The translations under genes were made by a program, and so were the position numbers. From Vulcanimicrobiota bacterium (GTDB lineage Bacteria; Vulcanimicrobiota; Vulcanimicrobiia; Vulcanimicrobiales; Vulcanimicrobiaceae): a DNA stretch of 64,000 bases. Below are positions 1 through 19,920 of the stretch, in pieces. The notes below the pieces were generated by a model. The model was not told the origin of the DNA. It ran no database searches and was given only the letters and a program-made list of their open reading frames with translations. Numbering within the stretch: the first letter of the stretch is position 1; every line of letters starts with the position of its first letter. Location of the stretch: positions 576,001 to 640,000 of the forward strand of contig CAWCIZ010000002.1 of the NCBI GenBank assembly GCA_963795855.1. The letters are read 5' to 3'.

Positions 1-1189
1 GCGAGCCTCGTCATGCTCATGACGCCGGGGCTCGCGTTTTTTTACGGGGGCCTGGTCGGCCGTAAAAACGTGCTGACGATCATGATTCAGAGACTTCATG
101 TCGCTCGGATGGACGACGGTCGTCTGGGTCGCAGTCGGCTATTCGATGTGCTTCGGCAACGACTGGCACGGCGTCATCGGCAATCCGGCGCAATACTTCT
201 TCCTGCGCGGCGTAACGCTGCACACGATGTTCATGGGCAACGACGCCGGCATTCCGCTGGTCGTGCACATCGCCTATCAGATGATGTTCGCCATCATCAC
301 GCCGGCGCTCATCACCGGTGCGTTCGCAAACCGCGTCACGTTCAAAGCATACTTTCTCTTTCTTACCGGCTGGCTGCTGTTCGTCTATTTCCCGTTCGTC
401 CACATGATCTGGAGCCCGGACGGCGCGCTCGCGAAATGGGGCGTACTCGATTTCGCGGGCGGCATTGTGGTGCATGCGTCCGCGGGGTTCGCGGCACTTG
501 CTTCGGTGCTGTTCATCGGGCGGCGCTACGTGATCGAAAACAAGCCGCATAACGTTCCGCTGATCGCGCTCGGCACCGGTTTGCTGTGGTTCGGCTGGTA
601 CGGATTCAACGCCGGCTCGGAGCTGCGCGTCGACGCCGTTACTGCGTCGGCATTTTTGAACACCGACGTTGCGGCATCGTTTGCGGCCGTTGCGTGGCTT
701 CTGATCGAATGGGCGCGCGGCAGACAACCGAAATTCGTCGGCTTGCTGACCGGCGCCGTTGCGGGGCTTGCAACGATTACTCCGGCGGCGGGGTACGTTT
801 CACCGGTTGCCGCGATTTTGTTCGGTCTGCTGGCCGGCGCGGTGTGCTACTATGCGGTCGCGCTGAAAAACCGGCTTGGCTGGGACGACGCGCTGGACGT
901 CTGGGGCGTGCACGGCGTCGGCGGCGTGCTGGGCATCACGCTGCTCGGCATCTTTGCTACGAAACTGTGGAACCCGGCCGGCGCGAACGGTTTGCTGTTC
1001 GGCGGCGCGTCGTTCTTCGGCAAGCAAGTCGCCGCTGCAGTATTTTGCAGTGCGTGGGCCTTCGCGTTTACGTACGGAATGCTCTGGCTCATCAGCCGCG
1101 TCACGCTGACCAAAGTACCGCGCGATGCCGAAGAGCGCGGATTGGACATCGAACTGCACGGCGAGGAAGCCTACCCGCTCGGCATCTGA
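1..1189 (+). CDS. amtB: Ammonium transporter (Amt family), 5'-truncated by window edge, single-base frameshift near 90
   Basis: LMTPGLAFFYGGLV in frame 13.. joins MSLGWTT...YQMMFAIITPALITGA, DFAGGIVVH, WFGWYGFNAGS, DDALDVWGVHG in ORF 98..1189; one extra A in ATTCAGAGACTTC. Confidence 0.95.
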
Positions 1190-1202
1190 CTCGCGGGAAG
1201 AC

Positions 1203-2232
1203 ATGCTCGCGCTGCTCGGCATCTTGCTGCTCGCGCAGGCGGTACCGTCGCCGTCCGCCTCGCCAAACCCGCAGCCTACCCAGACTCCGGCGCCGGCGAT
1301 CGCCGTCGCCCCGGAGTTTGCGCTGTACGATTTTCAAACGGCCGACGTGTCGGACGCATTGCTGAATTTCAGCATCAATCTCGGCAAGCTGCACGCCAAC
1401 GCGACCGCAGGCGATTATGCTTTTCCGGTCGTCGGGTTTCCGCTGGTTCCGGACAATGCTCCGGGTGCGAACGTTGCTTTGTACAGTCCGCTGCCGCTTG
1501 CCACGCTGACGTATCAATTCAATCCGCACGGCGGCATCACTGCCGGAAAATTTGCCTCACTGCTCGGTCAAGAGTCACCGTTCACCTACCAAAACCTGAA
1601 CGTGCAGCGTGGAATCGCATGGAACATGGAGCCGGCTATCAGCCGCGGCGTGCAATTCGGCTGACTCCAACGGCCCGTGGAGCGCGAATCTGCGCGAGGA
1701 CGACGCGTATTACTCCGGCAGTAATCGCGCCTTTGAGGGTCTTGTGGGCTGGTCACCGTCCACGAATACGAGCGTCCAGTTTGCGGCAATGATTCCGGGC
1801 GCAAACGTTCCGCCCAACGTAACGACGAGCGTGGGCAACAAACAAGAGTACGATTTGATGTATACGCGCACCATCGGCAAACTCGAGGTGCTGCCGTACG
1901 TTTTGTGGGTGCATTCTCCGGCGTCGCACGTGCTCGGTTATACGAACGGCGAAAACGCTAACGCGGAGGTACTGCTCGGAACGTGGACGTTCTCGCCCCA
2001 ATGGAGCGTTGCGTTTCGCTACGAGGAGGCGCGCAACGCGAGCTCCGCGTCGGACCCGAGCCCGAACGCGGATCTCGTCGGCTTTGGTGCGGGCGCCAGC
2101 GCCATATCGCAAACGCTTACTTCTGCGTATCATTTCGGAAACGGCGGCGTGGTGCGTCTCGAGTACTCGCACGTTTCGGCTACTAATCTAATTCAAAATC
2201 GCTTCGGGTTCGAATTCGGCGTCATGCATTGA
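1203..2232 (+). CDS. Putative outer-membrane beta-barrel/porin with signal peptide; frameshift near 1662
   Basis: Signal peptide MLALLGILLLAQA plus Pro-rich linker; ITAGKFASLLGQES..YQNLN segment; alternating beta-strand C-terminus (RFGFEFGVMH); ORFs 1125..1664 and 1609..2232 join by removing one base. Confidence 0.7.
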
Positions 2233-2249
2233 CCGAGGTGTGCGGCGGC

Positions 2250-2690
2250 TTAGAGCATCGTGATGCCGTGACGCCGTGCAATCTCCGTCATGATTTGCGG
2301 ATTCAACTCTTTTTGAGAGCCGAGTTCGGCGAAGAATTCTTCGATGCCGCCGGGCGTAAACCCGAACAGCACGCGCCCGGGGGCCGTTCCGATATTTTTA
2401 TAGCGATGCGGCATTCCGCGCGGCGCGAAGACGAACGTTCCGGGACCGCCCGCAACGCGATCCGATCCGCAAACGAATTCGAATTCGCCCTCGAGCACGT
2501 AGTAGGTTTCGTTCTCCTTTTCGTGGACGTGCAGCGGGGGTCCGGAATCGGGCGGGATGACGTCTTCGATGACCGTCGCTTCGCCGTTTGACTGCGCCGC
2601 GGCCAACTTCACGCGGATCTCCTGTCCGCCGTAACGGATGCACGGGCCCTGTCCCGCGGGGACATGATGAATAGCCTGCTGCTTCAGCAT
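2250..2690 (-). CDS. Cupin domain protein
   Basis: GPPLHVHEKENETYYVLEGEF and APRGMPHRY cupin motifs; RBS AGGAGG before ATG 2690. Confidence 0.9.
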   Translation of the reverse strand: MLKQQAIHHVPAGQGPCIRYGGQEIRVKLAAAQSNGEATVIEDVIPPDSGPPLHVHEKENETYYVLEGEFEFVCGSDRVAGGPGTFVFAPRGMPHRYKNIGTAPGRVLFGFTPGGIEEFFAELGSQKELNPQIMTEIARRHGITML

Positions 2691-2706
2691 GATGTTCCTC
2701 CTTCGT

Positions 2707-2731
2707 GGTACTTGAGTACCGTAACGGTACT
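2707..2731. promoter_or_regulatory. Overlapping inverted repeats, probable TetR operator
   Basis: AGTACCGT-A-ACGGTACT (2715-2731) and GGTACT-TG-AGTACC (2707-2720) between divergent cupin and TetR genes. Confidence 0.7.
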
Positions 2732-2750
2732 GTGATACTATAAGTCGGTC

Positions 2751-3404
2751 GTGATATTCCGTCAAGCCGGGCCGCGCAGGGCGACTGCGAACGTCGGCCG
2801 AGTCGCACAAAAGGAGCGCACGCGTCTGCAATTGTTGCAGGCGGCGCGCAATTTGCGCTCGGACGGCCACGTCCCGAGCGTGGCCGACGTCGCGGACGCA
2901 GCCGGCATTTCTCGTACGACGGCCTACCGGTATTTTCCGACTCAGGAAACGCTGCTCGCCGAAGCCACTGCGGAGCCGCTTATCGATGCCGTCCGAAATG
3001 CGATTGCACGCGCGGCAGATCAGTGCGACGTCGTCAAGCGGGTAGACGCGGTTTTCGCAGAACTCGTGCCGCTCTTACTTCAGCATGAGCCCGAGTTGCG
3101 CACGTTGCTGAAGCTCTCGCTCGAGAGCTCGTTGGAACAGGCGCACAAACGGCGGGCTCCGCTCTTGAGCGGCAGCTGGATTCTCGCCTGGGACGGCATT
3201 TTGGAGCCGTTGCGGCGCGAGGTGCGGCCAAAAACTTACGCGTTGATGGCGCGCACGCTGGGAACCCTACTCAGCATAGAAAGCCTCAACGTTTTACGCG
3301 ATGCGTGCGACCTTGACGAACGAGCCACGATCGAAGCCGTTCGATCTGCGGCCCGAGCGCTGGTCCGCGGATTCCTACTCGAACTACGAAAGAGAAAGAA
3401 GTAA
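2751..3404 (+). CDS. TetR/AcrR family transcriptional regulator
   Basis: N-terminal HTH: PSVADVADAAGISRTTAYRYFPTQETL. Confidence 0.9.
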   Translation: MIFRQAGPRRATANVGRVAQKERTRLQLLQAARNLRSDGHVPSVADVADAAGISRTTAYRYFPTQETLLAEATAEPLIDAVRNAIARAADQCDVVKRVDAVFAELVPLLLQHEPELRTLLKLSLESSLEQAHKRRAPLLSGSWILAWDGILEPLRREVRPKTYALMARTLGTLLSIESLNVLRDACDLDERATIEAVRSAARALVRGFLLELRKRKK

Positions 3405-3592
3405 TGAAATACGTATTGTGCCCGCCTTGCGGTACCGTTTTTGAAGGAGAGACCGAACAGGACCTCATCCGCACGACGCAGCAGCACTCCAAGGAGAAGC
3501 ACGACTACCTCCCGCCCGCGGATGAAGTGCGCAAATTCATACGTGCGACGCCGCCGCCCGCGGACGACACAGTCCATCGCTCCCAACATTGA
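3404..3592 (+). CDS. Small DUF1059-like putative metal-binding protein
   Basis: CPPC...GETEQDL...HSKEKH pattern; TAATG coupling to TetR stop. Confidence 0.6.
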   Translation: MKYVLCPPCGTVFEGETEQDLIRTTQQHSKEKHDYLPPADEVRKFIRATPPPADDTVHRSQH

Positions 3593-4094
3593 AAACGCGG
3601 TTCGCGCGGGCCCGCATGTTTTCAAACCCGGCGACGCTTGCAAGCTCGATGAGCTGCTCCTCCGAAAAGTGGCGGCGCAGTTCGGCGTAAAGATCGTCGC
3701 CGACGTTCGCGGGCGTCTCCGCGAGTGCGTCCGCCATGCGCAGGAGCGCCGTTTCTGCAGGCGCGAATCCCTCGAGCTCGCCGGATGTAATCGACGCCAG
3801 CTCGGCATCGGTTAGGCCGTACATTCTGCCACCTGCAGAATTTGAGTCGATTCAAAACGGGCAGCCGACGCGCGCCGCCGTTCGCAAGGCGACAATCAAG
3901 GGCTGCCGTTTCGGCAAGGCGGACCTCTCGAAGAGCAGCCACTGCGCCAGACCATGCAACCAAAAGACGCGGGGTACGCGGGCCGCGATTAACTGCGGGG
4001 TAAGGTCGCGGCCCATCATTTTACGCACTTTGTTGAAGACAAACCGCATCGAGAACGGGGCGCGTTTCGGGTCGATGCCGCTGATTCGTGCCAT
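3537..4094 (-). CDS. AhpD/carboxymuconolactone decarboxylase family protein with in-frame UGA (3852-3854), probable selenocysteine in a CPFU motif
   Basis: ORFs 3852..4094 and 3537..3824 are in one frame: ...RTAARVGCPF-UGA-IDSNSAGGRMYGLTDAEL...ELRRHFSEEQLIELASVAGFENMRARANRV; RBS AAGGAG. Confidence 0.85.
3823..3841 (-). promoter_or_regulatory. Putative bacterial SECIS hairpin
   Basis: AUUCUGC-AGGUG-GCAGAAU, 7-bp perfect stem starting 10 nt after the UGA. Confidence 0.75.
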
Positions 4095-4114
4095 TTTTAC
4101 TCCTTTACCGAATG

Positions 4115-4141
4115 GACGATTCGCGAGTGGGAAAAGTGACT
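4115..4141 (-). promoter_or_regulatory. ECF41-type promoter
   Basis: AGTCACT-N16-CGTC versus consensus TGTCACA-N16-CGTC, directly upstream of the CMD/AhpD gene. Confidence 0.6.
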
Positions 4142-4151
4142 CTGCTTGGCG

Positions 4152-4829
4152 TTAATCGGGAAACGTCACATTAGTCAGATGCAGTATACTCGTGAACTGC
4201 ATATCCTTCGCATCGTGCGGCGGCGGAAGCCAGGTTGCACCGATTGAGTCGATCCACCATGTAGCATTTGGCGGAAACGGACGGAATGAATAGTCGATGC
4301 TCGCAAACCACCCGTCCTGATGCATCGCGTACGTGAGTTTGCGTACGTCATAGGTCGTTTCGTCGGTCCACACAGCGCGCAACGGGTAATAGTCGGGATT
4401 GCCAATCGGCTGCAGCAGCAGATGGTAGCAACGGTGCCCCTCGACCACCTGTTCGCCGGCCAACGCGACGGTATAGTGCAAGGCATGCACGGAAGCGATC
4501 GTGGCGAGCGGACCGACGAAGGGATCGAGTTGCGTGCTCGCCGGATACCTGGCGGAGATGTTGAAACCCAACGGCGAACCTGCAGGCCCGACGCATGACG
4601 GTCCGTCGCTGGTCGTCACGTCGGGCGAATCCGAATCGATTTCGCGCGTCCGGCACCAGTGATCGAACGTGCGCAGCAGAACGTGCTCGTTACCCGTGAC
4701 CTCTTTTCCGGAGACGTAACGATGCCGTATTGCTATGTCGAACTCGACGTAGCGCGGCAAACGGCGAGCTTCCCATGCATTCTGCGCACGCTGGAAGATG
4801 ACGACGGCGGCAGGTGGAGTCAACAACAT
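4152..4829 (-). CDS. Hypothetical exported protein (possibly LolA/sorting-protein-like fold)
   Basis: 225-aa ORF; YTVALAGEQVVEGHRCYHLLLQP...LRAVWTDETTY pattern. Confidence 0.55.
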   Translation of the reverse strand: MLLTPPAAVVIFQRAQNAWEARRLPRYVEFDIAIRHRYVSGKEVTGNEHVLLRTFDHWCRTREIDSDSPDVTTSDGPSCVGPAGSPLGFNISARYPASTQLDPFVGPLATIASVHALHYTVALAGEQVVEGHRCYHLLLQPIGNPDYYPLRAVWTDETTYDVRKLTYAMHQDGWFASIDYSFRPFPPNATWWIDSIGATWLPPPHDAKDMQFTSILHLTNVTFPD

Positions 4830-4939
4830 CTCGGTCTCTGTCCAACGGCACTACAGCCAAATCGCGAATTCTGCCAAAACCCAACGGGTTGGCTTTTTCC
4901 CAAAATTGCGGATCAAGGTGTGCCGCCACCAGCGCCAGG

Positions 4940-6163
4940 TTATTCCAGTTCGGCGATTCGGCCGGCGATGTAGCGGCGTTCTGCCTCTTGCTCCGTCAAC
5001 TCAAGTGCGCGGGCATACGCAGATCTCGCTTCCCCGATTCGCCCCAAACGCCGGTACATGTCGGCACGCGCCGAATGTGCAAACCGATAGTCGCTGAGCG
5101 CTCCGCGATCGATAATTTCCTCCATCAGTGCAAGGCCGGCAGCCGGACCATCCCGCATCGCAATCGCCGCCGCGCGGTTGAGCTGGATAATCGGCGACGG
5201 GTCGAGTTCGAGCAGAACGTCATACAGCCGAACGATTTTGGTCCAGTCCGTATCTTGCGGGCGCGGCGCTGCGGCGTGGACTTGCGCGATCGATGCCTCG
5301 CACGCGTAGCGTGACATGCGACCATCTTCGAGCGCACGCTTTAAGAACGCTTGTGCTTGTGAAATCGCCGCCCGGTCCCATTTCGAACGATCTTGATCGT
5401 CTAGGAGAATCAACTCGCCCTCTGGTCCCATACGCGCGTTTCGCCGCGAGTGCTGGAACAGCATTAGCGCGAGCAGGGCATAAATTTCCGCGCTCGGCAA
5501 AAGTTCTGCGATAAGCCTCGCAAGGCGAACCGCCTCGCCGCAGAGATCGACGCGGAGGAGCGATGGACCGAACGACGCTTCGTAGCCTTCGTTGAAAAGC
5601 AGATAGATCACGTGCAGTACGCCTTGCAGACGCTGCGTCAGATCTTCGTCCGCAGGCACTTCATAGGCGATACCGGCGTCTCGAATTTTTGACTTTGCGC
5701 GAACGATGCGCTGTGCGATCGCCGAGGGTCTCGCGACAAACGCTTGCGCGATCTCTTCCGTCGTCAATCCGCATGCCTCCCGCAGTGTGAGCGCAACTTG
5801 CGCGTCCAGCGAGAGCGCGGGATGACAGCACAGAAAGATCAGGCGCAAATCGTCGTCCGCTATGTAATCGAAATCTGCGCTCAACTCTTCGCTCACCTTC
5901 GACTCGTGCGCGAACCGCTTCAGGGAGGCATCGTAACGGGCACGCCGGCGAACCGCATCGATTGCTTGAAAGCGCCCCGCCGAGATCAGCCACGATCGCG
6001 GATTGCGCGGCATGCCCTCACGCGGCCATTGTTCGGCAGCGGCGAGAAACGCTTCGTGCAACGCGTCTTCCGCGAGATCGAAGTCGCCGAGCAGCCGAAT
6101 CAGCGTCGCCAGGACATGCCGGGATTCCGCGGCATAGACTGACTCGAGGTCGAGTGCCGTCAT
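4940..6163 (-). CDS. ECF42-type RNA polymerase sigma factor with C-terminal TPR extension
   Basis: VLATLIRLLGDFDLAEDA, DDDLRLIFLCCHPAL, AQRIVRAK, IYLLFNEGY, LLDDQDRSKWD, TDWTKIVRLYDVL; coupled to YciI/DGPF gene. Confidence 0.92.
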   Translation of the reverse strand: MTALDLESVYAAESRHVLATLIRLLGDFDLAEDALHEAFLAAAEQWPREGMPRNPRSWLISAGRFQAIDAVRRRARYDASLKRFAHESKVSEELSADFDYIADDDLRLIFLCCHPALSLDAQVALTLREACGLTTEEIAQAFVARPSAIAQRIVRAKSKIRDAGIAYEVPADEDLTQRLQGVLHVIYLLFNEGYEASFGPSLLRVDLCGEAVRLARLIAELLPSAEIYALLALMLFQHSRRNARMGPEGELILLDDQDRSKWDRAAISQAQAFLKRALEDGRMSRYACEASIAQVHAAAPRPQDTDWTKIVRLYDVLLELDPSPIIQLNRAAAIAMRDGPAAGLALMEEIIDRGALSDYRFAHSARADMYRRLGRIGEARSAYARALELTEQEAERRYIAGRIAELE

Positions 6164-6511
6164 GACGGCTTGGGAATGTCGTGTACCGGACGGATTTCTA
6201 TCGCATCGTAAGACGCCGCGGGGTGGGCGCCGGCGATGCGGATGGCTTCATTCAGATCGCGCGCTTCGATGATGAAAAAGCCGCCGAGGTGTTCTTTAAT
6301 CTCGGCGAACGGGCCGTCGGTCATCGAGAGCTTGCCGTTCCGGCGGCGAACGGTCGTGGCCGTGTCGGCATCTTCGAGCGCCTCGAGGGCAACGAGATGG
6401 CCCTTACGTTTGAGCTCTTCGTGGTAGGCAATGCTGTCGTCGCGCAGACTGCGCTTGCTCGCCCTCGGGCAGCGGCTCGTCGTCACCGTAAATAAAGCAT
6501 GCATATTTCAT
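6160..6511 (-). CDS. YciI/DGPF family protein; frameshift near 6450
   Basis: ATTVRRRNGKLSMTDGPFAEIKEHLGGFFIIEARDLNEAI...IEIRPV; likely start MKYACFIY at 6511 with RBS GAGGAG. Confidence 0.88.
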
Positions 6512-6534
6512 GTCGTACGTTCTCCTCGCCCTAT

Positions 6535-6562
6535 TGTCGATTTTCGCCTGCCCGAATCGACC
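6535..6562. promoter_or_regulatory. Overlapping divergent ECF42-type promoters
   Basis: + strand TGTCGA-N17-CGAC; - strand GGTCGA-N17-CGAC on the same 28 bp. Confidence 0.55.
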
Positions 6563-6665
6563 AGAGGCATGTGTTTGGAATGCATCCCCGGAGTAGCACC
6601 GCTGGTCGTGGACGCCGTCGTGGCGCTCCGCCCCATGCTGCTACTGTATATGAAAGGAACCCACC

Positions 6666-7454
6666 ATGATGACGCACCCGAAGATCGCGACGCGCGAGGA
6701 ATGGCTCGCCGCTCGGCTGGAGTTGCTGAAGTCGGAAAAAGAATTGACCCACCGCAGCGACGAGCTGACGCGCCGGCGCATGGAACTGCCCTGGGTTCGG
6801 ATCGACAAGGAATATCGGTTCGAGACGGACGAGGGCACGGCGTCGCTTGCCGACCTCTTTAAAGGACGCTCGCAGCTGCTGATCTACCACTTCATGTTCG
6901 GACCGGATTACGAGGCGGGATGTCCGTCGTGCTCGTCCATTGCCGACGGCTTCAACGGCATCGTCGTGCATCTGCAGAATCACGACGTCGCGTTCAGCGC
7001 GGTGTCGCGCGCTCCGCTCGCCAAATTGCAAGCGTACAAGAAACGCATGGGCTGGAGTTTCCCATGGGCATCCTCGTCGGAGAGCGACTTCAACTTTCAA
7101 TTCAACGTCTCGTACACGGAGGAGCAAGAGCGCGAAGGCGACGTCGAGTACAACTTCCGGCGGATGGAAGCGGATCCGACGCCAATCGAAAGTTCGGAAG
7201 AGGAACATCGCTGGTCGAAGCGCTTCGCCGCGATGGCTGGAACCGATCGCGCAACGTACGGTCGTGAAGCACCCGGCGTAAGTGCGTTCGTACGCGAGGA
7301 CGGTGTCGTGTACCACACGTACTCGACGTATGCGCGCGGTCTGGACGGGTTATGGAATATGTATCAGTGGCTCGACCGCGCACCGCGAGGACGCAACGAA
7401 AGCTTCGATGCCGAACCATGGCTGCGCCAGCACGACAGATACGGAACGCCGTAG
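6666..7454 (+). CDS. DUF899 thioredoxin-like protein
   Basis: ATREEWLAARLELL, LADLFKGRSQLLIYHFMFGP, GCPSCS, YHTYSTYARG, LDRAPRGRNE. Confidence 0.92.
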   Translation: MMTHPKIATREEWLAARLELLKSEKELTHRSDELTRRRMELPWVRIDKEYRFETDEGTASLADLFKGRSQLLIYHFMFGPDYEAGCPSCSSIADGFNGIVVHLQNHDVAFSAVSRAPLAKLQAYKKRMGWSFPWASSSESDFNFQFNVSYTEEQEREGDVEYNFRRMEADPTPIESSEEEHRWSKRFAAMAGTDRATYGREAPGVSAFVREDGVVYHTYSTYARGLDGLWNMYQWLDRAPRGRNESFDAEPWLRQHDRYGTP

Positions 7455-7522
7455 CGCCAGCGCTAATTCCGCAGCCTATCGCTGTCGATTTACCGCGGCA
7501 CCGGATCTGCACGTTACCGAGT

Positions 7523-8371
7523 CTACGGGTTGGAGTGGCTCTTCACCAGAGCTAATGCTGCAGTGATCGCGTCGACTACACAGCCGGGTTGATCGACTTG
7601 GATGTAATGCCTGGATTCCGGAACGAGGACGTGCATCGCGTGTGGGATTGTCGCTAAGAACTTTTCATGAAGCTGCAGTTTTAGGTCCTGTTCGAGGGGA
7701 TTTCCCGGAAAGGCAGGGTTCTTTTTCGTACCGGTAAGTAGGATAGTCGGAACTACGGGTAATGGAAAGGCCATCGACGCTTCGACGCCGCTCGACTGCA
7801 ATGCTTCGTTTTCTCGACGTACTGCCGGAGGCATTGCGCCCTCGCTGGCTTTTATCGAAGCAAGGCGCGCTGCATAATCAGCCTTTGACATGTGCTCTTT
7901 CACTGCTGCCTCGAGGCCTTCCGGAACGGGATCGACGAAAACAAGAGCGGCGGTTTCACGGGGATACGTGTGCGCGAACACGCGAATTACCAGACCACCT
8001 AAAGAATGTCCGACAAGCACGTAGGGTGGCGGCACATCAAGCATCCGTAAGAGCTCGTGCAGATCAGCCGCCATCGTCGCCGCGTCCCGTTTGCGAGATG
8101 TGGCCGCGGATTCTCCAAGCCCGGGACGGTCATAGGAAACCGTTGTAGCGAATTTCGCAATCGCCGGGACCACTTTCGACCAAGTTGTTCCATCTTCACC
8201 CAAGCCGGACTCAAAAACCACCGCTGCATCACCCGCATGTCGCGATACGACCGCGTGTACTGAAGTACCGTTCAAGTTAACATAGGTGTCGCCACTGACG
8301 GAAACGGGCGGCGGCGACACGGCGAGCGCGAATAGCGCAACGCAAGCACCAGCGACGCGAAATGCGATCAC
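7523..8371 (-). CDS. Secreted alpha/beta hydrolase
   Basis: Signal peptide; VVFESGLG, SYDRPGLGES, LVGHSLGG nucleophile elbow, SRHYIQ. Confidence 0.9.
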   Translation of the reverse strand: MIAFRVAGACVALFALAVSPPPVSVSGDTYVNLNGTSVHAVVSRHAGDAAVVFESGLGEDGTTWSKVVPAIAKFATTVSYDRPGLGESAATSRKRDAATMAADLHELLRMLDVPPPYVLVGHSLGGLVIRVFAHTYPRETAALVFVDPVPEGLEAAVKEHMSKADYAARLASIKASEGAMPPAVRRENEALQSSGVEASMAFPLPVVPTILLTGTKKNPAFPGNPLEQDLKLQLHEKFLATIPHAMHVLVPESRHYIQVDQPGCVVDAITAALALVKSHSNP

Positions 8372-8410
8372 ACACTACCGTCCTCAGCACGAAGGAAGTT
8401 AACTCTTAAT

Positions 8411-8439
8411 ATATTAGTTGATGTTCGCCGCGTTGTCAA
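8411..8439 (-). promoter_or_regulatory. Sigma70-type promoter of hydrolase gene
   Basis: TTGACA-N17-TAATAT. Confidence 0.6.
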
Positions 8440-8574
8440 TTGTGGCACGAGAACGAACGGGTGATTCGCAAGATTGCGCAATGCGTGTCGCAGAAAAACT
8501 CGCGCCAATGTGGTGAGTGCGGCGTTGTCCGGCACGACGCGGGAAACGCACATCCGCACCGCGTAGCTCGCCGA

Positions 8575-10602
8575 ATGATGCTCGCTGCGATTGCCTTTTC
8601 ATTGGCACAGGTTCTTTCGTATCCGCTTCCTACGGCGCTCAGCGCGAGCGCCGATGGCCGCACGATCGTCTACGCTATAAATCAGCAGGGCAAGCGCAGC
8701 ATTTGGATCGCGCGCGCACCGCAATATCAACCCAAAAGAATCGTCGCGTACACGAGCGACGATGGGCAGAGCATCGGTTCGGTGCAAATCTCGGCGGACG
8801 GCTCGCACGTCGTGTACGTGCACGGGAATTCCGAGAATCCGAGCCTGCAACTGAGCAAACCAGAGCCACAGGTCTACGCCGTCGACGTGGGCACCGGCGC
8901 CCAGGCGCTGCTCGGTGCGGGATATGGGCCGGCGATCTCGGCCGACGGCGCGCAAGTCGCGTTTCTCAATAAAAATGCGGTCTGGACAGTTCCCATTGAC
9001 GGGCAAACGGCGGCGAGGCAACTGTTCTACGATCAAGGCAAGGATTCGGATCTGCAGTGGCAGCCGCACGGCGATGCGCTGGCGTTCACCTCGACGCGCG
9101 ACGATCACTCGCTCATCGGCGTTTATCGGGGCCCGAATCGGCCGCTGCAATTTCTTGCGCCGTCCGTTTACAATGACATGGAAGAACGCTGGTCGCCGGA
9201 CGGCACGCGCATCGCGTTCGCACGCACACCGGGTGACGGCGGCGCGCCGCAGTCGCCGCTGCAGCGGCCGATTGTGCCGTGGTCGCTCATGGTTGCGCAG
9301 ATCTCCGATGGAAGCGCGCGCGCCATGTGGCGCGGTCCGCGCACCGAACGCGCGTCGTTTCCGACCGAAGGGGGCGACGTCGATCTCACGTGGGCCGGAA
9401 ACGATCGAGTCGTATTCATCAGCGAGATGGACAATTGGCCGCATCTGTACGCGGTCAGTGCAGAGCAGAGTGCGAAGCGATTAACGAGCGGCAATTTCGC
9501 AGTCACGTCGTTCACCGTTTCTCCTGATGGGCAATCGATAATCTACTCGGCGAATACCGGTAGAACGGCGGGTGATATCGATCGCTGGCATCTGTACCGC
9601 GTGAATATTGCGAACGGGGCAACGCAGACCTTGACCTCGGGCGCATCGTCGCAGTGGTGGCCGGCGCAGCTCGCGGACGGGCACATCATGTACGTCACCG
9701 CAACCGCGCAGCAGCCGCCGATGATTGCCTTCGCGGATGCAAACGGTTCGCAGCGGCGCCTGCTCGACGGCTTGCTGCTGCCGGGCGATTTTCCGGCATC
9801 GAAACTCGTCACGCCGCGCGACGTGACGTATCATGCGCCGGACGGCACGCTCATTCACGCGCAACTGTTTGAACCTTCCACAAACGCGCGCCGAGTGACA
9901 AACCGATACCCCGCGGTTATTTTCGTCCATGGCGGACCGATGCGACAGATGCTGCTGACCTGGAATTCGAGCGGATATTATTCCAATGCGTACGCGGTGG
10001 ACCAATATTTAGCGCAACGGGGTATCGCAGTTCTTTCCATCAACTATCGTTCGGGTATCGATTACGGGCACGATTTCCATTACGCGCTTCGCCGCGGATG
10101 GACCGGTGCGAGTGAATACCAAGACGTGCTCGCGGGGGCCCACTGGCTCCAGGCGCAGCGGGAAATCGACGGCGCACACATCGGCATCTGGGGCGGTTCG
10201 TGGGGCGGTTATCTGACGGCCCTTGCCCTGGCGCGAAACTCCGACGTCTTCAAGGCAGGAGTCGATTTTAGCGGCGTGCACAATCTCTCGCACGACGCGG
10301 TGTGGTACTTCCATGGCGAGCAGGCCGACACGATCGACCTGAAGCCGTGGATCCAACTCGGATGGCAATCTTCGCCGGATGCCTCGATTGCGAAATGGCG
10401 CTCGCCGGTGCTGCTGATTCAAGGCGACGACGATCCGGACGTTTCTTTTCATCAACTCGTCGACTTGGTGCCGCGTTTAGAGGAGCATCACGTGCCGTAT
10501 CAACTGCTGGTGTTCCCCGACGAGGGACATTCCTTCTTACGTTATGCAACGTGGTTGCGCGCCGATACGGCGACCGCCGCATTTTTGACGGAGCACTTGT
10601 AA
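8575..10602 (+). CDS. S9 family prolyl oligopeptidase/dipeptidyl peptidase with N-terminal beta-propeller
   Basis: PD40-like repeats (WSPDGTRIAF); VHGGP, GIWGGSWGG, QGDDDPDV, FPDEGHS catalytic triad motifs. Confidence 0.92.
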   Translation: MMLAAIAFSLAQVLSYPLPTALSASADGRTIVYAINQQGKRSIWIARAPQYQPKRIVAYTSDDGQSIGSVQISADGSHVVYVHGNSENPSLQLSKPEPQVYAVDVGTGAQALLGAGYGPAISADGAQVAFLNKNAVWTVPIDGQTAARQLFYDQGKDSDLQWQPHGDALAFTSTRDDHSLIGVYRGPNRPLQFLAPSVYNDMEERWSPDGTRIAFARTPGDGGAPQSPLQRPIVPWSLMVAQISDGSARAMWRGPRTERASFPTEGGDVDLTWAGNDRVVFISEMDNWPHLYAVSAEQSAKRLTSGNFAVTSFTVSPDGQSIIYSANTGRTAGDIDRWHLYRVNIANGATQTLTSGASSQWWPAQLADGHIMYVTATAQQPPMIAFADANGSQRRLLDGLLLPGDFPASKLVTPRDVTYHAPDGTLIHAQLFEPSTNARRVTNRYPAVIFVHGGPMRQMLLTWNSSGYYSNAYAVDQYLAQRGIAVLSINYRSGIDYGHDFHYALRRGWTGASEYQDVLAGAHWLQAQREIDGAHIGIWGGSWGGYLTALALARNSDVFKAGVDFSGVHNLSHDAVWYFHGEQADTIDLKPWIQLGWQSSPDASIAKWRSPVLLIQGDDDPDVSFHQLVDLVPRLEEHHVPYQLLVFPDEGHSFLRYATWLRADTATAAFLTEHL

Positions 10603-10676
10603 CATCGTGCTGGCCGGATCACGACGAGCGGGGAACGACCTTGTTTGGTTTGCGGCGCCACAATGACGCACCCTTA

Positions 10677-12119
10677 CTAGTAAGTCAGCGTATCGATAAC
10701 CTCGGCGCCCGCAACGAGGCCGTCGTCATCGCGGCTGTATGCGTAAAGCAGCGTTTTCTTCGCCGTCTTTACCATGAAGAGATACGCGGTGGTGGGCGGC
10801 CGGCGATCCGTCGAAACCAGCTTGTACGTGCGACTGCCCAATGACCCGAGCGCTTGCAACGCCGCGCGGTGCGCCGGAATCAGATGCGCGCGAAAGTCCG
10901 GACGCAACTTCGACATGTCGACGCGGCCGGCGATTGCATCGTCGAGCCAGCGCTGAGCCGCCGCGACCATTGCCGGATCCGCCGGCGGGCGCGCGGCCTT
11001 ACCGGGCGTGGCTCCAGGATGCGGCGAGGGCTTCACCGCCGCGGACGGAACGAGCGCGCGATACAGCGCGGACACCGTGCTGTTGTAGCTGAACGCACCG
11101 CTGTTCGCTAAGACGACGATGCCGAGATGGTCGTCCGGAAAACGCGCATCCTGCGTTGCGGCGCCGTACGTGTTGCCGCCGTGCGAGATCATCAAGTGCC
11201 CGTTCGGCAAATGCGAAATCTCGATTCCGAATCCGTAATCCGGAAACGGATCGTTTTTACCGATGCGGTGCGGCGTCATCATTTCGGTGAGCGAATGCTT
11301 GGAGAGCAGTCTTCCGCCGGATAGCGCGGCATTCCACTTTGCAAGGTCGCGAGCGTTACTGATGATCGCTCCCGCGCCGCCGAACCACGTGTAATCCAGG
11401 TGCGTCGCGTGCTCCCACGGTCCGAGCGCAAACGACTCGTATTCCGTCGCGACGTTGGGGCGCGTGTCGTCGTAGCCGCGCACGAAGGTCGACGTCATGC
11501 CGAGCGGTTTAAAGATCCGCTGCTCGAGGAAATCGCCGTAACTCATGCCGGAAACGTGTTCGATGAGCAGCGCCAGCAGATTGTATCCGGTATTCGAATA
11601 CTCGCGCGCCGTTCCGGGCGTGAATGCAAGCGGCCGATGATCGACCGAGTTCACCAAGTCCTGCAGCGTGGTCGGGCGGTTCCCGATTTCATCGAAGGTC
11701 CCGATCTCGGTGTATTCCGCGTAACCGCCGGAGTGCGTGAGCAAATTGCGCAGCGTCACCTGGTTCGCATGCGGGATATTCGGCAAGTATTTGGAGAGGC
11801 GATCGTCGACGTTCAGTTTCCCTTCGTCCTGAAGCATCAGGATCGCCGTCGCGGTGAACTGCTTGGTGTTCGAACCGATCGGGTAACTCGTGTCGCCGCG
11901 CGCGGGGACCGCATCCTCGACGTTCATGTAGCCGAAGCCCTTGGCATAAACCACCGAGCCGCGGCTCAGGATCGCAATGGTGACGCCCGGCGCCGCTCGC
12001 CCGGCGACCGACTTGTTTCCAATGGCATTAATCGCAGCGATTTGTTGCGGCGTGAGCGAAAGGGGCGCAGCGCCGAGAAGGCCCAGCAGTGCCGCTGCAG
12101 CGGCGATCGTTCGAATCAT
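10677..12119 (-). CDS. Serine hydrolase, beta-lactamase/AmpC-like family
   Basis: SxxK (SNTK), LLTHSGG, YSN, HGG motifs; signal peptide. Confidence 0.9.
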   Translation of the reverse strand: MIRTIAAAAALLGLLGAAPLSLTPQQIAAINAIGNKSVAGRAAPGVTIAILSRGSVVYAKGFGYMNVEDAVPARGDTSYPIGSNTKQFTATAILMLQDEGKLNVDDRLSKYLPNIPHANQVTLRNLLTHSGGYAEYTEIGTFDEIGNRPTTLQDLVNSVDHRPLAFTPGTAREYSNTGYNLLALLIEHVSGMSYGDFLEQRIFKPLGMTSTFVRGYDDTRPNVATEYESFALGPWEHATHLDYTWFGGAGAIISNARDLAKWNAALSGGRLLSKHSLTEMMTPHRIGKNDPFPDYGFGIEISHLPNGHLMISHGGNTYGAATQDARFPDDHLGIVVLANSGAFSYNSTVSALYRALVPSAAVKPSPHPGATPGKAARPPADPAMVAAAQRWLDDAIAGRVDMSKLRPDFRAHLIPAHRAALQALGSLGSRTYKLVSTDRRPPTTAYLFMVKTAKKTLLYAYSRDDDGLVAGAEVIDTLTY

Positions 12120-12196
12120 GCCGGGTCTTACGGCGCCTCAACGATATTTTCCCGCATTCGGCAGTATTTCGGCCGACATTCCCAAAAAGGCCAACC

Positions 12197-13753
12197 ATGA
12201 ACAAGACGGTCTTCGTGGGCGCAACGGTCGTGGACGGCACCGGCGGACCCGCTCGCGCGTGCGACGTGTTCGTTGACGCAGAGCGCATCGAAGACGTACG
12301 GCCGCATGCGGACACGCACGCAGGTTGGAGGACCGTCGATGCCACGGGTCTGGTAATCGCGCCGGGCTTCATCGACGTGCACTCGCACGGCGACAACGCC
12401 CCGCTTCTTCCCGAAGACGACACGATGAAGATACTGCAAGGCGTCACGACCGAAGTGGTCGGCAACTGCGGCATAAGCCTTGCGCCGACCTCACCGCAGC
12501 ACCGCCCCGCGATGCTGATCGGCACGCATTTTGCCGACCTGCTGCGTGCCACGGACGCGCGGGGGTACGTCACCAATTACGCGCCGCTCGTGGGACACGG
12601 CTCGCTGCGCGCGGCGGCAATGGGGATGGATCGCCGCGCAGCAACGGCGCAAGAACGCGCATCCATGCGGGCATCGCTCGAAGAAGCGATCGAGGCTGGA
12701 GCATTCGGGCTTTCCACAGGACTCATTTATCCGCCCGGCGTGTTTTCCGATTTGGACGAACTCGTCGATTTGGCGAAATGTCTGCCGGCCGGAACAATCT
12801 ACACATCGCACATCCGCGGCGAGGGCGATACGCTGCTCGACGCCGTCAGGGAGGCGTTGGCGATCGGCGAAAAAGCACGCGTTCCGGTGCAAATCTCGCA
12901 TCACAAAGCCAGCGGCAAGAAAAACTGGGGAAAGACGCGCGACTCGCTCGAGTTGATTCGACAAGCACGCGCGCGCGGCGTGGTGGTGCATCAAGACGTG
13001 TATCCTTACACCGCCGGCAGCACCTATTTGAAAGCGGTGCTCCCGCCCGAATTCCACGAGGGCGGGAATGAAGCGACGCTCGAGCGTCTGCGCGATCCGC
13101 AGCGATTGAAAGAACTGCGAAACACGATCGAGGGCGATACGGCGGATTTTCAAAATTTCGTTGCGGAAGCGGGATACGACGGAATTCTGATCGCGTTCAC
13201 GCCGAGCCATCGTTTCGAGGGCCGGACAATTGTCGAAATTGCGCGGGAGCGCGGCTGCTCGGAATTCGACGCGCTGATTCACGTTCTCGTGACCGAACAA
13301 CTGTCCGCGATGATGACGATCTTCCTGATGAACGAGGACGACATCGCGCGCGTACTGCGCGACGAACACACGGTCATCGGTTCGGACGGAGCGGCGCCCG
13401 GCGTGCAAGGGCGCCATCATCCGCGATCGTACGGCACCTTCCCGCGGGTCATCGCGCAACACGTGCGCGAACTCGGCACGCTTACGCTGGAAACAGCCAT
13501 TCACAAGATGACCGGCTTGCCGGCCCGCATTTTCAACATCGCCGATCGCGGCACGATCGCTCCGGGGAACTTCGCAGATCTGGTTGCGTTCGATCCGCAG
13601 ACGTTTTCGGACGATCTGGATTACCGCGATCCGGTGCGCAATCCGAAAGGCTTGGCCTGGGTGACGGTGCGCGGCACCGAAGTGGTTCGCGGTACGACGT
13701 ATCTGGGGAGGCGCTGCGGCGCACGATTGACGCCGGCGGCTTTCATGCAGTAG
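12197..13753 (+). CDS. N-acyl-D-amino-acid deacylase (amidohydrolase family)
   Basis: APGFIDVHSH, QGVTTEVVGNCG, GAFGLSTGLIYPPG, DVYPYTAGST, GSDG, HPRSYGTFPR. Confidence 0.92.
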   Translation: MNKTVFVGATVVDGTGGPARACDVFVDAERIEDVRPHADTHAGWRTVDATGLVIAPGFIDVHSHGDNAPLLPEDDTMKILQGVTTEVVGNCGISLAPTSPQHRPAMLIGTHFADLLRATDARGYVTNYAPLVGHGSLRAAAMGMDRRAATAQERASMRASLEEAIEAGAFGLSTGLIYPPGVFSDLDELVDLAKCLPAGTIYTSHIRGEGDTLLDAVREALAIGEKARVPVQISHHKASGKKNWGKTRDSLELIRQARARGVVVHQDVYPYTAGSTYLKAVLPPEFHEGGNEATLERLRDPQRLKELRNTIEGDTADFQNFVAEAGYDGILIAFTPSHRFEGRTIVEIARERGCSEFDALIHVLVTEQLSAMMTIFLMNEDDIARVLRDEHTVIGSDGAAPGVQGRHHPRSYGTFPRVIAQHVRELGTLTLETAIHKMTGLPARIFNIADRGTIAPGNFADLVAFDPQTFSDDLDYRDPVRNPKGLAWVTVRGTEVVRGTTYLGRRCGARLTPAAFMQ

Positions 13754-13809
13754 CTTGCCGACCCGTGGTCACACCCGCTGAAATGGGTTTTTCGCTAAAA
13801 CCGGACGCG

Positions 13810-14385
13810 TTAAAGCGGCGACCTCGCAGCGACGACGGCCGCGGCCATCGCGAGTTTGTGATCGGCGTTCCAAGGCGGACCGATTGTTTTGCGCAGTTCG
13901 AGAAAATATGCGTCGAGGTTTTCGAGGTGCAGTGCTTGCGTTGCGGAAGCGAAGACCGTCTTCGCGTCGTACCAATGGACCCGCAAACCGCGCGCCTCTG
14001 CAGCGCCGGCAAGTGCTTTGCGATACATCACCCAGTCGGCGAGGTTTCGCGCGCGGTAGTCTTTGATGCGTTCGGCAATCGTCGGCGGAAGCGGCGGGCA
14101 GATGCGAAGTGCTATGTCTTCAATCCCCGGTACCGCTGCCGCGGTGGCATCCAGCGCAAGCACCGCATGTTTTTCTGCGGAGGCGTGCACGCGCTCCACT
14201 AACGCGACGGCTGCAGCGTCCGGTAACATCTGCGCTTCGTGATGATGCGGAATACTCGGCAAGGACTCATCCACAAGTTCCACGCGGCGGCGATCCAGGA
14301 GCGTTCCATCGCGCGTTGCCGTCACGAACACCGCCCAGCCGCCGTGATCCGAAACGCCGATTATAGCGCGATTCGGGACCTTCAC
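13810..14385 (-). CDS. Conserved hypothetical protein
   Basis: IIGVSDHGGWAVFV...DRRRVELVD...PHHHE...GPPWNADHKLA; GTG start overlaps upstream stop (GTGA). Confidence 0.65.
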   Translation of the reverse strand: MKVPNRAIIGVSDHGGWAVFVTATRDGTLLDRRRVELVDESLPSIPHHHEAQMLPDAAAVALVERVHASAEKHAVLALDATAAAVPGIEDIALRICPPLPPTIAERIKDYRARNLADWVMYRKALAGAAEARGLRVHWYDAKTVFASATQALHLENLDAYFLELRKTIGPPWNADHKLAMAAAVVAARSPL

Positions 14386-15207
14386 ACCGCCGTCAGCGCC
14401 GTGGCCTGCAAAAACAAGCTGAACCAGTTGTAACGCTGCATCAGTTCGTCGTGCGCTACGGTCGTCAGCACGAACGTCGGTGCGCGGGTTTGCAACTCGG
14501 CCAGCGTCATGCCGTGCGCCGTATGGACGAAGATATTCGGCGTCGGCCCCTGGATCAGGGACATGAGGTAGACGTTTCCGTTTTCCGTGTCCGCGGTGAA
14601 AAGGCTGAGCAAATGATTGCCGTCTCGCGCTTTGACCCAAGACGCGAAGACGTCGTAGAACGCATACGCGGTGTCGAACATGAGGACGTCGGTAATGGCA
14701 TCGCTCAATCCACCGCGAGCCAGAACGCCCGCTTCGCCGCCGTAACCGCCACTGTGCGAACTTAGGACGACTTTTCCGGTGCCGGTCGCTTGCGTTACGC
14801 CCTGCGTACGCAGAAACGCGGCGATCTCATCGATGAGACGCGCGAAGCCCGCCGTCATCGTGCTCGAGCTTGCCGAAGTCGTCATCGCGCGCATCTTTGG
14901 GGCCCTGCGGAACCACGAGGATCGCGTTGCGCCCACTCAGATCCAGTTGTTCGCGTAATCGATAGCGCTGCAGCACGTGGCTGACGTCATTGCAAAAGCC
15001 GTGAAAGTGAACGACGTAGTCGATGGTGTCGGTGGCACGGAAGGCCGCGGGAACGTAAATGCCGACGGTGGAGTCGCGATATGGACGCCCCGCATGCGGA
15101 TACGGCGCGGCATCGAACGGCCGCAGGAACGTACGTCCTTTGAGAGCGGGCAACACCGGCGACGCGAGCGCGCCTCCGGCGATACAGAGGAAATCGGAGC
15201 GACGCAT
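14382..15207 (-). CDS. Tat-type secreted alpha/beta-hydrolase-like protein; frameshift near 14855
   Basis: MRRSDFL signal; VVHFHG, ILVVPQGP, LSSHSGG elbow, MFDTAY; ORFs 14827..15222 and 14382..14936 join. Confidence 0.7.
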
Positions 15208-15255
15208 AAGCCGTTGTTCCATTTGTTGGGCTACGCCCCTCTCGTCGATTGTCGA

Positions 15256-16356
15256 TCAGCGTTTCGCGAACGAGCCGATCGCAAGCGCAGCCTCCGCGAA
15301 GGCTGCGCGCCGCAGGCGGTACATGACGAAGTATCCGTTGCGGTCGCGTTCCACCAGACCAGCGTGAAAAAGCATGCGCAGATGCCGCGAAACTTGCGGC
15401 TCGGTCGTGTCCAGAAAGCCGGCCAGTTCGCGCGTGGACAAATCCCTTGCGCCAAGCAATTCCACGATGCGCAGCCGCGTTTCATTGCCGAGAGCCGCAA
15501 CACTTCGCGCAAGGGCTGCACGATCTCGCAGCGGCCTTGTGCGAGCAGAGAGCGGGACGACCGGGTAGGCGATGCTGACGCGCAATCCACGCGGCGTGCG
15601 AAGGACGAACGCCTGCAAATGGGGCCAACAGAAATACGAGGGCTCCAGCGTGACCGTGCAGCGCCCGCTCAGATCCACTTGCGCGTCGGCGGCGCCAAAA
15701 ACCAGCGTTGCGCTGCCGTCGCGAGCCTGCCGAACCGAAAGATCATTTGAGAGCGTGCGCATCAGCGCGGTAACGCCGTGGTTTTCGAGCAGCGCCCGGC
15801 GCATTGCGATGTCGTTCAGTAGGCGCGAATGGATCTCGCCCCACACCGGCTCGACGATTTCTGCTTGCACTTGCAGGAGCATGCCGCAGAACCGTTCCAA
15901 ACTCGCAGCGGGCGACGCGACGAACTCGTCCAGCATCGGGCCTGCATCCGGATGACGTTCTGAATATTCCCGGACAGCACGGCGGTACCAGCGCGGCTTG
16001 TCCAGCTCCCGAACCTGATTTGCAGCAAGAAGTTTCGCGCCGCTGAGCCGTCGCACGACGGCTTCGCGGTACGCGCCTACATTCCGACCAAGCACGTCGA
16101 TCTCTGCGGCAGCCGTGCCGGAGCGCGTCCCGCGCCAAAGTTTCGGAAATATCTCCGCTCCCGATGAAAACAAAAACCGGAAGTGCGCCATCTCCGAGCG
16201 CAGCCGCAGCGTGAGGCGCCGTCGAGCATTTCGGATCCACGGCATCTGCTCCGCATGGTGCGCCGGATGCAAGAGCACCTCGACGCTGCGCAGCGTCTCG
16301 CGCGCGGCGGAGAAAGCGAAATGGACCTGGCCCTCGCGGACGCCGTTCAGCTGCAT
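15256..16356 (-). CDS. ArsR-family regulator with N-terminal DUF5937-like domain
   Basis: HFAFSAARETLRS, LEPSYFCWPH, IAYP; C-terminal ALGNETRLRIVELL..STRELA..VSRHLRML..AGLV. Confidence 0.85.
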   Translation of the reverse strand: MQLNGVREGQVHFAFSAARETLRSVEVLLHPAHHAEQMPWIRNARRRLTLRLRSEMAHFRFLFSSGAEIFPKLWRGTRSGTAAAEIDVLGRNVGAYREAVVRRLSGAKLLAANQVRELDKPRWYRRAVREYSERHPDAGPMLDEFVASPAASLERFCGMLLQVQAEIVEPVWGEIHSRLLNDIAMRRALLENHGVTALMRTLSNDLSVRQARDGSATLVFGAADAQVDLSGRCTVTLEPSYFCWPHLQAFVLRTPRGLRVSIAYPVVPLSARTRPLRDRAALARSVAALGNETRLRIVELLGARDLSTRELAGFLDTTEPQVSRHLRMLFHAGLVERDRNGYFVMYRLRRAAFAEAALAIGSFAKR

Positions 16357-16414
16357 TGATTGCGTATTCCGATAATCAGTTGCCGGTCTGCACCGGGACG
16401 CTTATCATACCGGA

Positions 16415-17545
16415 ATGCACCTGATTTTTCTATGCCTGCTCGCGCTGCGCGCCGGTTCGACGCCGGCGCCCGGAGATACGCTCTTCGCGCACGGCCGGTT
16501 TACCGAAGCGAACGCTGCATACGCAAAAGCCGTTGCGATCGATTCGCGCGACGTTGACGCGCATGCAGGCCTCGCGCGTGTCGCGCTCTTCGAAAATCGT
16601 TTGGGTGAAGCGGCGCGGGAGGCCCACGCGGCGCTCGCGCTCGATCCTCACAACCGCGTCGCAGAACGGATACTCCACACCGTCGCGCAGCGTCGCGGCG
16701 TGCTGGAAAGTGCGCAAAAACTCGACATTCCCGCTGGAGGCATCATCGTTCCCTTTTTGGCGGTCGATCCGCTGCCGCTGATGCAGTTCAAGGTCAACGG
16801 CCGCATCGGGAATTTTTTACTCGACACGGGCGGCCCGGACGTCGTTCTTGATCCGGGTTTTGCAAACGAACTGGGCTTGGCGGTTACAGGCGGCAAGACC
16901 GGCACGTTCGCGGGCGGGCGCACCGCCCAGGTTCGGCAAACCTTCATTTCCGAAATGAGCGTCGGGCCGCTCGTGCTGCACAACTTGAATGCCGACGTCC
17001 TTCCATCGCGCGGGCTTCCGTTTTTCGGCGAACGCAAGGTCGACGGAGTCGTCGGTACCGTGTTCTTATCGCGGTTTCTTGCGACGATCGATTACCCGCA
17101 TCGACGGCTGGTCCTCAAACCGCGCACCGGCGCCGCTCCGCCCGGTACCGCAGTACCGATGTGGCTGGTTGGCGACCACTTCATCTTCGCCCGGGGCAGC
17201 GTCAACGGCTTGCGCGACCAACTTTTTCTCGTGGACTCCGGCTTGGCGGGCGGCGGCTTTTCACCCGAGGCGAAAACGATAGCGGCCGCGCACCTGAAGA
17301 CGTTTCCGGACAAGGCGCAAACCGGCATCGGCGGCGGCGGTCCCGTCAAGTTCATTCCGGTTGTCGCAGACGAATTATGCCTCGCGAATGCATGCCAAAA
17401 GGACATTCCCGGCATGTATACACCCGAGGGATCGCCGTTGGCGATGTTCCCGTTTGCGGTGTCGGGCGCAGTATCGCATAAGTACTTGGAGCACTACGCG
17501 GTAACGCTCGATTTTTCGAGGATGGAGCTGACGCTGTCGCCCTGA
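16415..17545 (+). CDS. Secreted TPR plus tandem retropepsin-like aspartyl protease
   Basis: Signal peptide, TPR-like helices, FLLDTGG and FLVDSGL catalytic motifs, DGVVGTVFL. Confidence 0.85.
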   Translation: MHLIFLCLLALRAGSTPAPGDTLFAHGRFTEANAAYAKAVAIDSRDVDAHAGLARVALFENRLGEAAREAHAALALDPHNRVAERILHTVAQRRGVLESAQKLDIPAGGIIVPFLAVDPLPLMQFKVNGRIGNFLLDTGGPDVVLDPGFANELGLAVTGGKTGTFAGGRTAQVRQTFISEMSVGPLVLHNLNADVLPSRGLPFFGERKVDGVVGTVFLSRFLATIDYPHRRLVLKPRTGAAPPGTAVPMWLVGDHFIFARGSVNGLRDQLFLVDSGLAGGGFSPEAKTIAAAHLKTFPDKAQTGIGGGGPVKFIPVVADELCLANACQKDIPGMYTPEGSPLAMFPFAVSGAVSHKYLEHYAVTLDFSRMELTLSP

Positions 17546-17584
17546 GCGGGATGAGTCGCGCGCTGTTCGCGAAATATCGAGGGT

Positions 17585-18607: not shown

Positions 18608-19050
18608 TTCGGCGAATTGCCGCGCCCACGTCTCCCCCGCCGCCAAAGTACACAACCTCCCAGTAGTTGTCTTCCGGATCCGCAAAATATGCGGATCGGC
18701 CATCGAAAAGCGTTGCCTCCACGGGTTCTTTCGTAATGCGGCCTCCGCCCGAACGAATCTTCGCGATCGCCGAATCGACCTGTTCTCGGGAATCGACATT
18801 CATTGCGAGGGTAAACCCGCGCATTCCGGTTCCCGGCGAGTTCGCTTTGAGCTCGAGCATCCGCTTCGAGCGCGCTTAGCTCGAAGACGGCGAGCAACGC
18901 GCCCAGCGTTTGAAATACGACGAAGTCTTCAGAATCCACGAGCAGCGGCCAACCAAGGCCGGCGTAGAAGTCGCGTAGTTTCTTCACGCTACGCGCGCCA
19001 AGCGTTATTACGGTCATGCGCGGCGGCACGCCGCGGTCTTCAGATGACAT
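18585..19050 (-). CDS. VOC/glyoxalase family protein; frameshift near 18850
   Basis: MTVITLGARSVKKLRDFYAGLGW joins GFTLAMNVDSREQVD...GRSAYFADPEDNYWEV. Confidence 0.85.
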
Positions 19051-19906: not shown

Positions 19907-19920
19907 TTAAACCTAATGAG

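Follow-up and report, generated by a model that had tools for sequence, protein, structure and literature searches.

The accessible text of a 2005 paper on the Sargasso Sea (PMC1088965) describes selenoproteins of the AhpD-like kind with a CxxU motif as well as 'CMD domain-containing' ones with the same motif, which bears out the premise of the original prediction for the locus studied here, namely that AhpD-like CxxU selenoproteins exist. In the available parts of further sources, AhpD-like/CMD selenoproteins were counted among the most frequent families of the ocean samples surveyed (GOS, 2008; PMC2398784), Acidobacteria were credited with three selenoprotein families (2006; PMC1794560), and the table of a 2026 review carries the entries 'CMD-like protein PF02627 CxxU' and 'AhpD-like protein TIGR01926 CxxU' (PMC13188914). 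A search of the accessible literature for papers containing both 'Eremiobacterota' and 'selenocysteine' returned none, and the strings 'Eremiobacter' and 'Acidobacteri' were absent from the main text of two 2026 papers, the supplementary family lists of which may include the clade described below.

In the window (the whole stretch of 64,000 nucleotides analysed here), the minus-strand gene that heads Table 1 very probably encodes one 185-residue selenoprotein of the CMD/AhpD fold.

Table 1. Positions in the window of the candidate selenoprotein gene and of its sequence elements
Feature	Position	Strand	Basis
Candidate selenoprotein gene, 185 codons plus terminal TGA	3537..4094	minus	Translation; Pfam CMD; fold model
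In-frame UGA, codon 81, putatively read as selenocysteine	3852..3854	minus	TGA column conserved; Cys in distant homologues
Cys78 codon TGC, partner of U81 in the CxxU motif	3861..3863	minus	Translation; alignment
SECIS-type hairpin	3823..3841	minus	5' arm 3841-3835; loop AGGUG 3834-3830; 3' arm 3829-3823
Shine-Dalgarno-like AAGGAG	4100..4105	minus	5 nt upstream of the ATG at 4094-4092; read from the sequence

The reading frame and its protein family

Translation of the minus strand gave one frame in which the TGA at codon 81 was the sole internal stop, in agreement with the prediction that two ORF fragments form a single frame broken only by UGA; under translation table 11 these appear as ORFs of 80 aa (3852-4094) and 95 aa (3537-3824, from Met91) that share the frame. 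The context of the codon (RVGCPF-U-IDSNSAGGRMYG) yields a putative redox motif, C78-P-F-U81, and places the UGA, as had also been proposed, at the second position of the CxxC site of the family. Residue C78 was invariant across the 24 rows of the alignment used for the structure model, and in the 19 nearest full-length homologues aligned (approximately 28-34% identical), the U column was Cys without exception and CxxC was present in 18. In the genome at large TGA was the commonest stop codon, closing 1260 of the 2696 frames of at least 300 codons as well as the selenoprotein gene itself, and a genome-wide recoding of UGA was excluded on the basis of these long frames.

The protein matched the Pfam CMD family (PF02627), reaching 35.6 bits where the cut-off is 23, residues 51-122 lying on profile positions 11-83 of 84, across the UGA. 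An AlphaFold model made from 24 aligned sequences (pLDDT 89.1) was all-helical with nine helices, and Foldseek matched it with a probability of 1.00 to AhpD/CMD structures (TM 0.80-0.86, rmsd 1.7-2.8 A, 172-180 columns); 6e8l (AhpD of S. pneumoniae), 2prr, 3lvy and 6ohi/6ohj (debrominase Bmp8) share the fold of the model. The solved CMD/AhpD structures are Cys enzymes with 16-22% identity over full-length matches, and M. tuberculosis AhpD was a weak structural match (TM 0.55). Conservation was lowest in the C-terminal tail of the protein, and there too the model had its lowest confidence (pLDDT <50 for residues 178-185).

None of the NCBIfam cut-offs was passed. The best NCBIfam model, NF053654 (GroundWater_YciW, 'YciW-related (seleno)protein'), gave 83.1 bits against a cut-off of 310, in an end-to-end match of residues 1-176 on profile positions 1-177 of 179; an acidobacterial orthologue (L057) scored 95 bits with it, and two paralogues, L029 and L031, scored 252-265 bits. 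These two near-members have the motif C-x-F-U-x-D-x-N in common with the selenoprotein, the clade of which is, as judged from the sequences, a sister subfamily of NF053654 and not a member of it. For TIGR01926 (peroxidase-related enzyme), the score was 33 bits against a cut-off of 81.8, a model with which paralogues in related genomes gave 98 and 80 bits.

The His of the CxxCxxxH motif is a defining catalytic residue of AhpD. The CxxC of 2gmy aligns by sequence with C78/U81, and 2gmy, 2ijc and the TIGR01926-like paralogues have the His at +4, a position at which the selenoprotein has Asn85; Asp83 was invariant. Given Asn85, it cannot be taken for granted that the predicted enzyme has a proton relay like that of AhpD.

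Standard pipelines had been expected to break the gene, and in searches with word-indexed and HMMER tools, public gene calls were indeed found either to split it or to read W at the Sec column. About 100 matches from the word-indexed search were C-terminal halves with MYG as their first residues, such a half being named 'hypothetical protein' in one NCBI record, and W stood at the Sec column in six close full-length metagenome proteins (P0002-P0007), all from one source. Since no TGG was present in 80 metagenome loci, the W in these six proteins is probably a TGA read under another code. With the subfamily broken by gene calls and lacking an NCBIfam model, the selenoproteomes of soil Acidobacteriota and Eremiobacterota would be under-counted.

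The habit of gene callers of starting the C-terminal half at the ATG of codon 91, and the retention of Met91 in 54 of 57 orthologues, could also be taken to mean that UGA is passed as Trp or Cys by near-cognate read-through, or that two peptides are made (residues 1-80, and from codon 91 onwards). This we regard as extremely unlikely: the codon-91 ATG falls within the 3' hairpin arm described below, which explains its retention, Cys aligns at the UGA in distant homologues, and a full set of Sec genes is present in the genome. The CMD domain (residues 51-122) and the predicted fold both cross the UGA, which argues for one protein and not two.

The downstream hairpin and its conservation

The perfect hairpin predicted ten nucleotides downstream of the UGA was found in place (AUUCUGC/AGGUG/GCAGAAU), with a 7-bp stem starting 10 nt past the codon and a span of 11-29 nt downstream, within the codons for N85-S-A-G-G-R-M91. 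A 21-nt piece containing it folded with -8.3 kcal/mol (z = -4.3), and none of 200 shuffles folded as well. For wider pieces the total folding energy was ordinary relative to shuffles (40 nt, z -0.75; 61 nt, z -0.28), as expected at the 62% G+C of the genome; at this composition total energy fails to separate Sec from Cys genes, and position-specific hairpins and synonymous sites were used. A comparison of window positions 3400-4200 with Rfam gave no hit with an E value of 10 or below, a result that carries no information either way. A naive genome-wide scan for CxxU/UxxC plus a hairpin, which returned 388 of 2477 candidates, mostly in non-coding frames, was too noisy and was set aside.

The likeness to the E. 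coli fdhF SECIS that had been put forward holds for its register: codons +6/+7 after UGA140 of K-12 fdhF are GCA GGT, identical to those found here, and in both hairpins GGU lies in the apical loop at an equal distance from the UGA. The fdhF hairpin, however, has one unpaired (bulged) base in its 5' arm, whereas the stem in the window is perfect over 7 bp without a bulge, and the stem sequences differ. The U of the fdhF GGU is not kept in Acidobacteriota orthologues either, in which codon +7 was GGC (22), GGA (15), GGT (12) or GGG (8). A small apical loop with G, in a stem-loop just past the UGA and under selection, is how the accessible text of PMC1088965 words the mark of a selenoprotein, and this combination was found at the locus.

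Related loci were collected from a scan of one genome per species (57 loci) and from a scan of metagenomes (80 loci). TGA was present at the column in 56 of the 57 genome loci (54 by pattern, L096 and L105 by eye), the 57th, L108, being a C-terminal remnant without the UGA region, and in 80 of 80 metagenome loci (79 by pattern, L167 by eye), none of which had a sense codon there. UGA together with a conserved hairpin was thereby seen in 136 orthologous loci from genomes and metagenomes, the kind of homologue that the original prediction had called for. The remnant L108 covers residues 121-176 only and lies on one Eremiobacteraeota chromosome record with L098, a full orthologue with a frameshift near its 3' end.

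The same 136 loci bear on the reading of the gene as a plain pseudogene, with its TGA due either to faulty sequencing or to a nonsense mutation of recent date. Indel errors do occur in this assembly, and no public sequencing run over the site was found (one weak match, available as contigs and with 6% of sampled words, gave 8 small pieces on positions 1-20000, none of them over 3336-4002, and no RNA run was among the matches); the TGA is nevertheless shared by independent loci from other genomes and metagenomes, and the lesions seen in the assembly are indels and not substitutions, which leaves this reading with a negligible probability.

Codon use was compared over 57 distinct orthologous sequences, with L089 dropped (it reads LFU, and the pattern required PFU). 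The hairpin-arm codons were near-fixed (AAT 54/57, TCT 56/57, GGC 56/56 and AGA 56/57), whereas the Gly codons at -4, +7 and +12 had about 1.9 bits of synonymous entropy each and Arg elsewhere was mostly CGN. TCT and AGA are odd choices for such G+C-rich genomes. This pattern of synonymous fixation indicates that at the hairpin arms the RNA is under selection as well as the peptide.

In the related genomes, 38 of 61 matched the protein, with an in-frame TGA in 19 of 52 among the matches listed. Of 30 loci read from these genomes, 17 had C-x-x-U and 12 had Cys at the second position, so that the interchange of UGA and Cys at this column, proposed as a check, was observed among relatives as well as in the distant homologues; L046 was without the motif. 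A perfect hairpin of at least 6 bp (6-8 bp) starting 10-13 nt past the UGA, or at the corresponding place, was present in 13 of 15 CxxU genes versus 1 of 12 CxxC genes (L048), in a comparison that left out L046 and also L023 and L024, duplicate records of L052 and L053; when L030, L042, L043 and L049, from genomes flagged as unpublished, were excluded, the counts were 11 of 13 and 1 of 10. The exception, L048 (genome G041), is a Cys-form CMD gene (GCSFC/TGT) with a perfect 7-bp hairpin 11 nt past the Cys codon, and may be a recent Sec-to-Cys conversion or a product of chance in G+C-rich DNA. Relatives in the Eremiobacterota have further CxxU CMD genes with hairpins of their own (L029, L031, L026-L028, L032, L034, L037, L040 and L045), and this lineage's relatives, as read from these gene sequences, carry several distinct predicted CMD selenoproteins; the genome of the window has five CMD genes, with TGA in the selenoprotein gene only.

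Between these subfamilies the arm sequences vary while pairing is kept (AUUCUGC, CUCUGCC, UGCUGC, ACCGCCUU, GGUGCCUU and UGCGCCU). Because MAFFT broke the structural register of 19 hairpins, loop-centred 21-mers were scripted instead. In the 17 distinct 21-mers, standard pairs filled 108 of 119 stem cells and each of the seven stem pairs showed 2-4 pair types, against only 38-46 standard pairs of 102-119 cells in registers shifted by 1-2; these pair counts lean towards structure, since the hairpin itself was used to fix the register, and related sequences are not independent of one another. Covariation was thus seen as pairing kept through changed sequence in paralogues, with the arms frozen in orthologues.

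The best 150 hits were read from an exhaustive HMMER search against 1.84 billion representatives. Among these, all hits above approximately 45% identity were half proteins (ending at 80 or starting at 82-91), the full-length ones were at most 37% identical, and no Cys orthologue above approximately 37% identity was found. On these comparisons the clade is apparently Sec-only.

Selenocysteine machinery and the quality of the assembly

The selA, selB, selC and selD genes, the presence of which was the first check suggested for the prediction, were all found in the genome above cut-offs. The tRNA-Sec, with the anticodon TCA, scored 72.6 bits, above the gathering score of 47. The selD gene (386 bits; contig 3, 568275-569198) has an in-frame TGA of its own at ...SSCAGU-ASKLG, approximately 27 nt past which lies a 7-bp hairpin, rich in G+C and topped by GCAGGUC. 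The selA match came in two pieces (324 and 190 bits), and that to selB as 278 bits plus a C-terminal piece; the two genes adjoin each other outside the window (contig 3, 124879-128115), and one frameshift splits each, near 127,300 in selA and near 125,650 in selB.

If these frameshifts were real, the Sec pathway of the strain would be broken, and the copy in the window would be a decaying relic with translation stopping at UGA81. The split of selA into two frames, by a single base that the genus relative G002 lacks, and that of selB into two frames are what such decay would leave. The same assembly (86% complete, 6 contigs, 62% G+C), however, has the essential rpoB split over three frames (contig 2, 270154-273402; rpoC is whole), and a BBP2 (OmpL-like porin) gene at 1125-2232 of the window (plus strand) is likewise frameshifted, with profile positions 31-141 in 1125-1664 and 146-315 in 1609-2232. 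The statement of the original prediction that the other lesions in the window are indels therefore stood for the porin gene, and the frameshifts in rpoB, selA and selB extend it to the rest of the genome. Furthermore, selA was whole in all five relatives checked, and the selenoprotein gene, its UGA and its hairpin showed no other damage in this copy. The relic reading is accordingly considered very unlikely. Since rpoB and the porin gene are also split, selA is whole in relatives and the assembly is 86% complete, the frameshifts in selA and selB are most likely assembly indels rather than signs of decay.

A selA gene over the cut-off was present in 58 of the 61 genomes of the class (six flagged as unpublished). 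This genome of the Baltobacteraceae (Eremiobacterota), and most of its class, would on this count use selenocysteine.

Distribution, proposed mechanism and relation to known selenoproteins

By record titles, the hosts of orthologues were Baltobacteraceae/Eremiobacteraeota, many Terriglobia (Acidobacteriota) and two Binatia genomes; within the family of the window, orthologues were found in 4 of the 37 genomes searched, that of the window counted. A tree was built from the 55 orthologues that remained after filters had removed 3 of 58 candidate rows, with three paralogues as a long-branched outgroup. The seven Baltobacteraceae rows formed one clade (100/100) in it, nested in a starred acidobacterial clade (98/94). 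The apparent nesting fits one transfer from Acidobacteriota to Baltobacteraceae, in which the SECIS would have travelled with the gene.

The neighbours of the gene are a weak LolA-like ORF, an ECF sigma factor/DUF6596 gene with a YCII gene, a TetR regulator and a DUF1059 ORF. The last of these (62 aa, 3404-3592, plus strand) is convergent with the selenoprotein gene, the final 56 nt of which lie in the overlap. The ECF-type sigma factor (407 aa), which has DUF6596 and ends in a TPR tail, lies at 4940-6504 (minus strand) with the YCII-domain gene (114 aa) ahead of it, a known pairing; the pair is not conserved beside orthologues of the selenoprotein. No conservation of flanking ORFs was found beside the orthologues, except for one ORF in two loci, and there was no operon clue to the substrate. 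A promoter and terminator scan gave no promoter-like sites and a number of terminator-like sites near that expected from shuffles.

The conserved UGA, the selected hairpin, the interchange with Cys and the sel genes together support the proposal that the UGA is a Sec codon, from which we infer Sec insertion itself. When the ribosome reaches UGA81, the downstream hairpin would act as a bacterial SECIS and recruit SelB-GTP with Sec-tRNA(Sec), selenocysteine being inserted instead of termination taking place. C78-P-F-U81, located where a helix begins, would then be the redox centre of a putative thiol/selenol oxidoreductase, either peroxidase-related or a disulfide reductase in type. Nucleophilic attack would fall to U81, C78 would resolve the adduct to a selenenylsulfide, and a cellular thiol reductant would recycle the enzyme. 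In M. tuberculosis AhpD, the second Cys of CxxC is the nucleophile.

A more far-reaching reading joins several of these points: the clade would be Sec-obligate, it would have reached the Baltobacteraceae from Acidobacteriota by a SECIS-borne transfer, the peptide N-S-A-G-G-R-M would be constrained by the RNA hairpin no less than by protein function, and the active site would be a His-less, selenol-only one acting on a substrate unlike that of AhpD. Obligate use of Sec is suggested by the finding of Cys in none of the 136 orthologues, the nearest Cys forms being about a third identical; that the hairpin holds N-S-A-G-G-R-M is suggested by the arm changes between subfamilies, which alter both paired codons (S..R to A..S). 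The low pKa of a selenol could make the His relay dispensable. Taken jointly, these propositions are tentative, and it is rather doubtful that all of them hold.

Compared with the AhpD-like/CMD CxxU selenoproteins that the accessible literature describes, the protein predicted here is alike in its Pfam domain, in Sec at the second position of CxxU, in a G-loop hairpin past the UGA and in having Cys homologues; a CxxU AhpD/CMD redox protein with a SECIS hairpin would be textbook bacterial selenoprotein biology. It differs in that the known proteins have His four residues past U, a position at which this clade has Asn, and the hosts of the clade are soil Acidobacteriota and Eremiobacterota. On sequence comparison, the gene thus appears to belong to a known selenoprotein kind, as part of a new and apparently Sec-only subfamily in Baltobacteraceae and Acidobacteriota.
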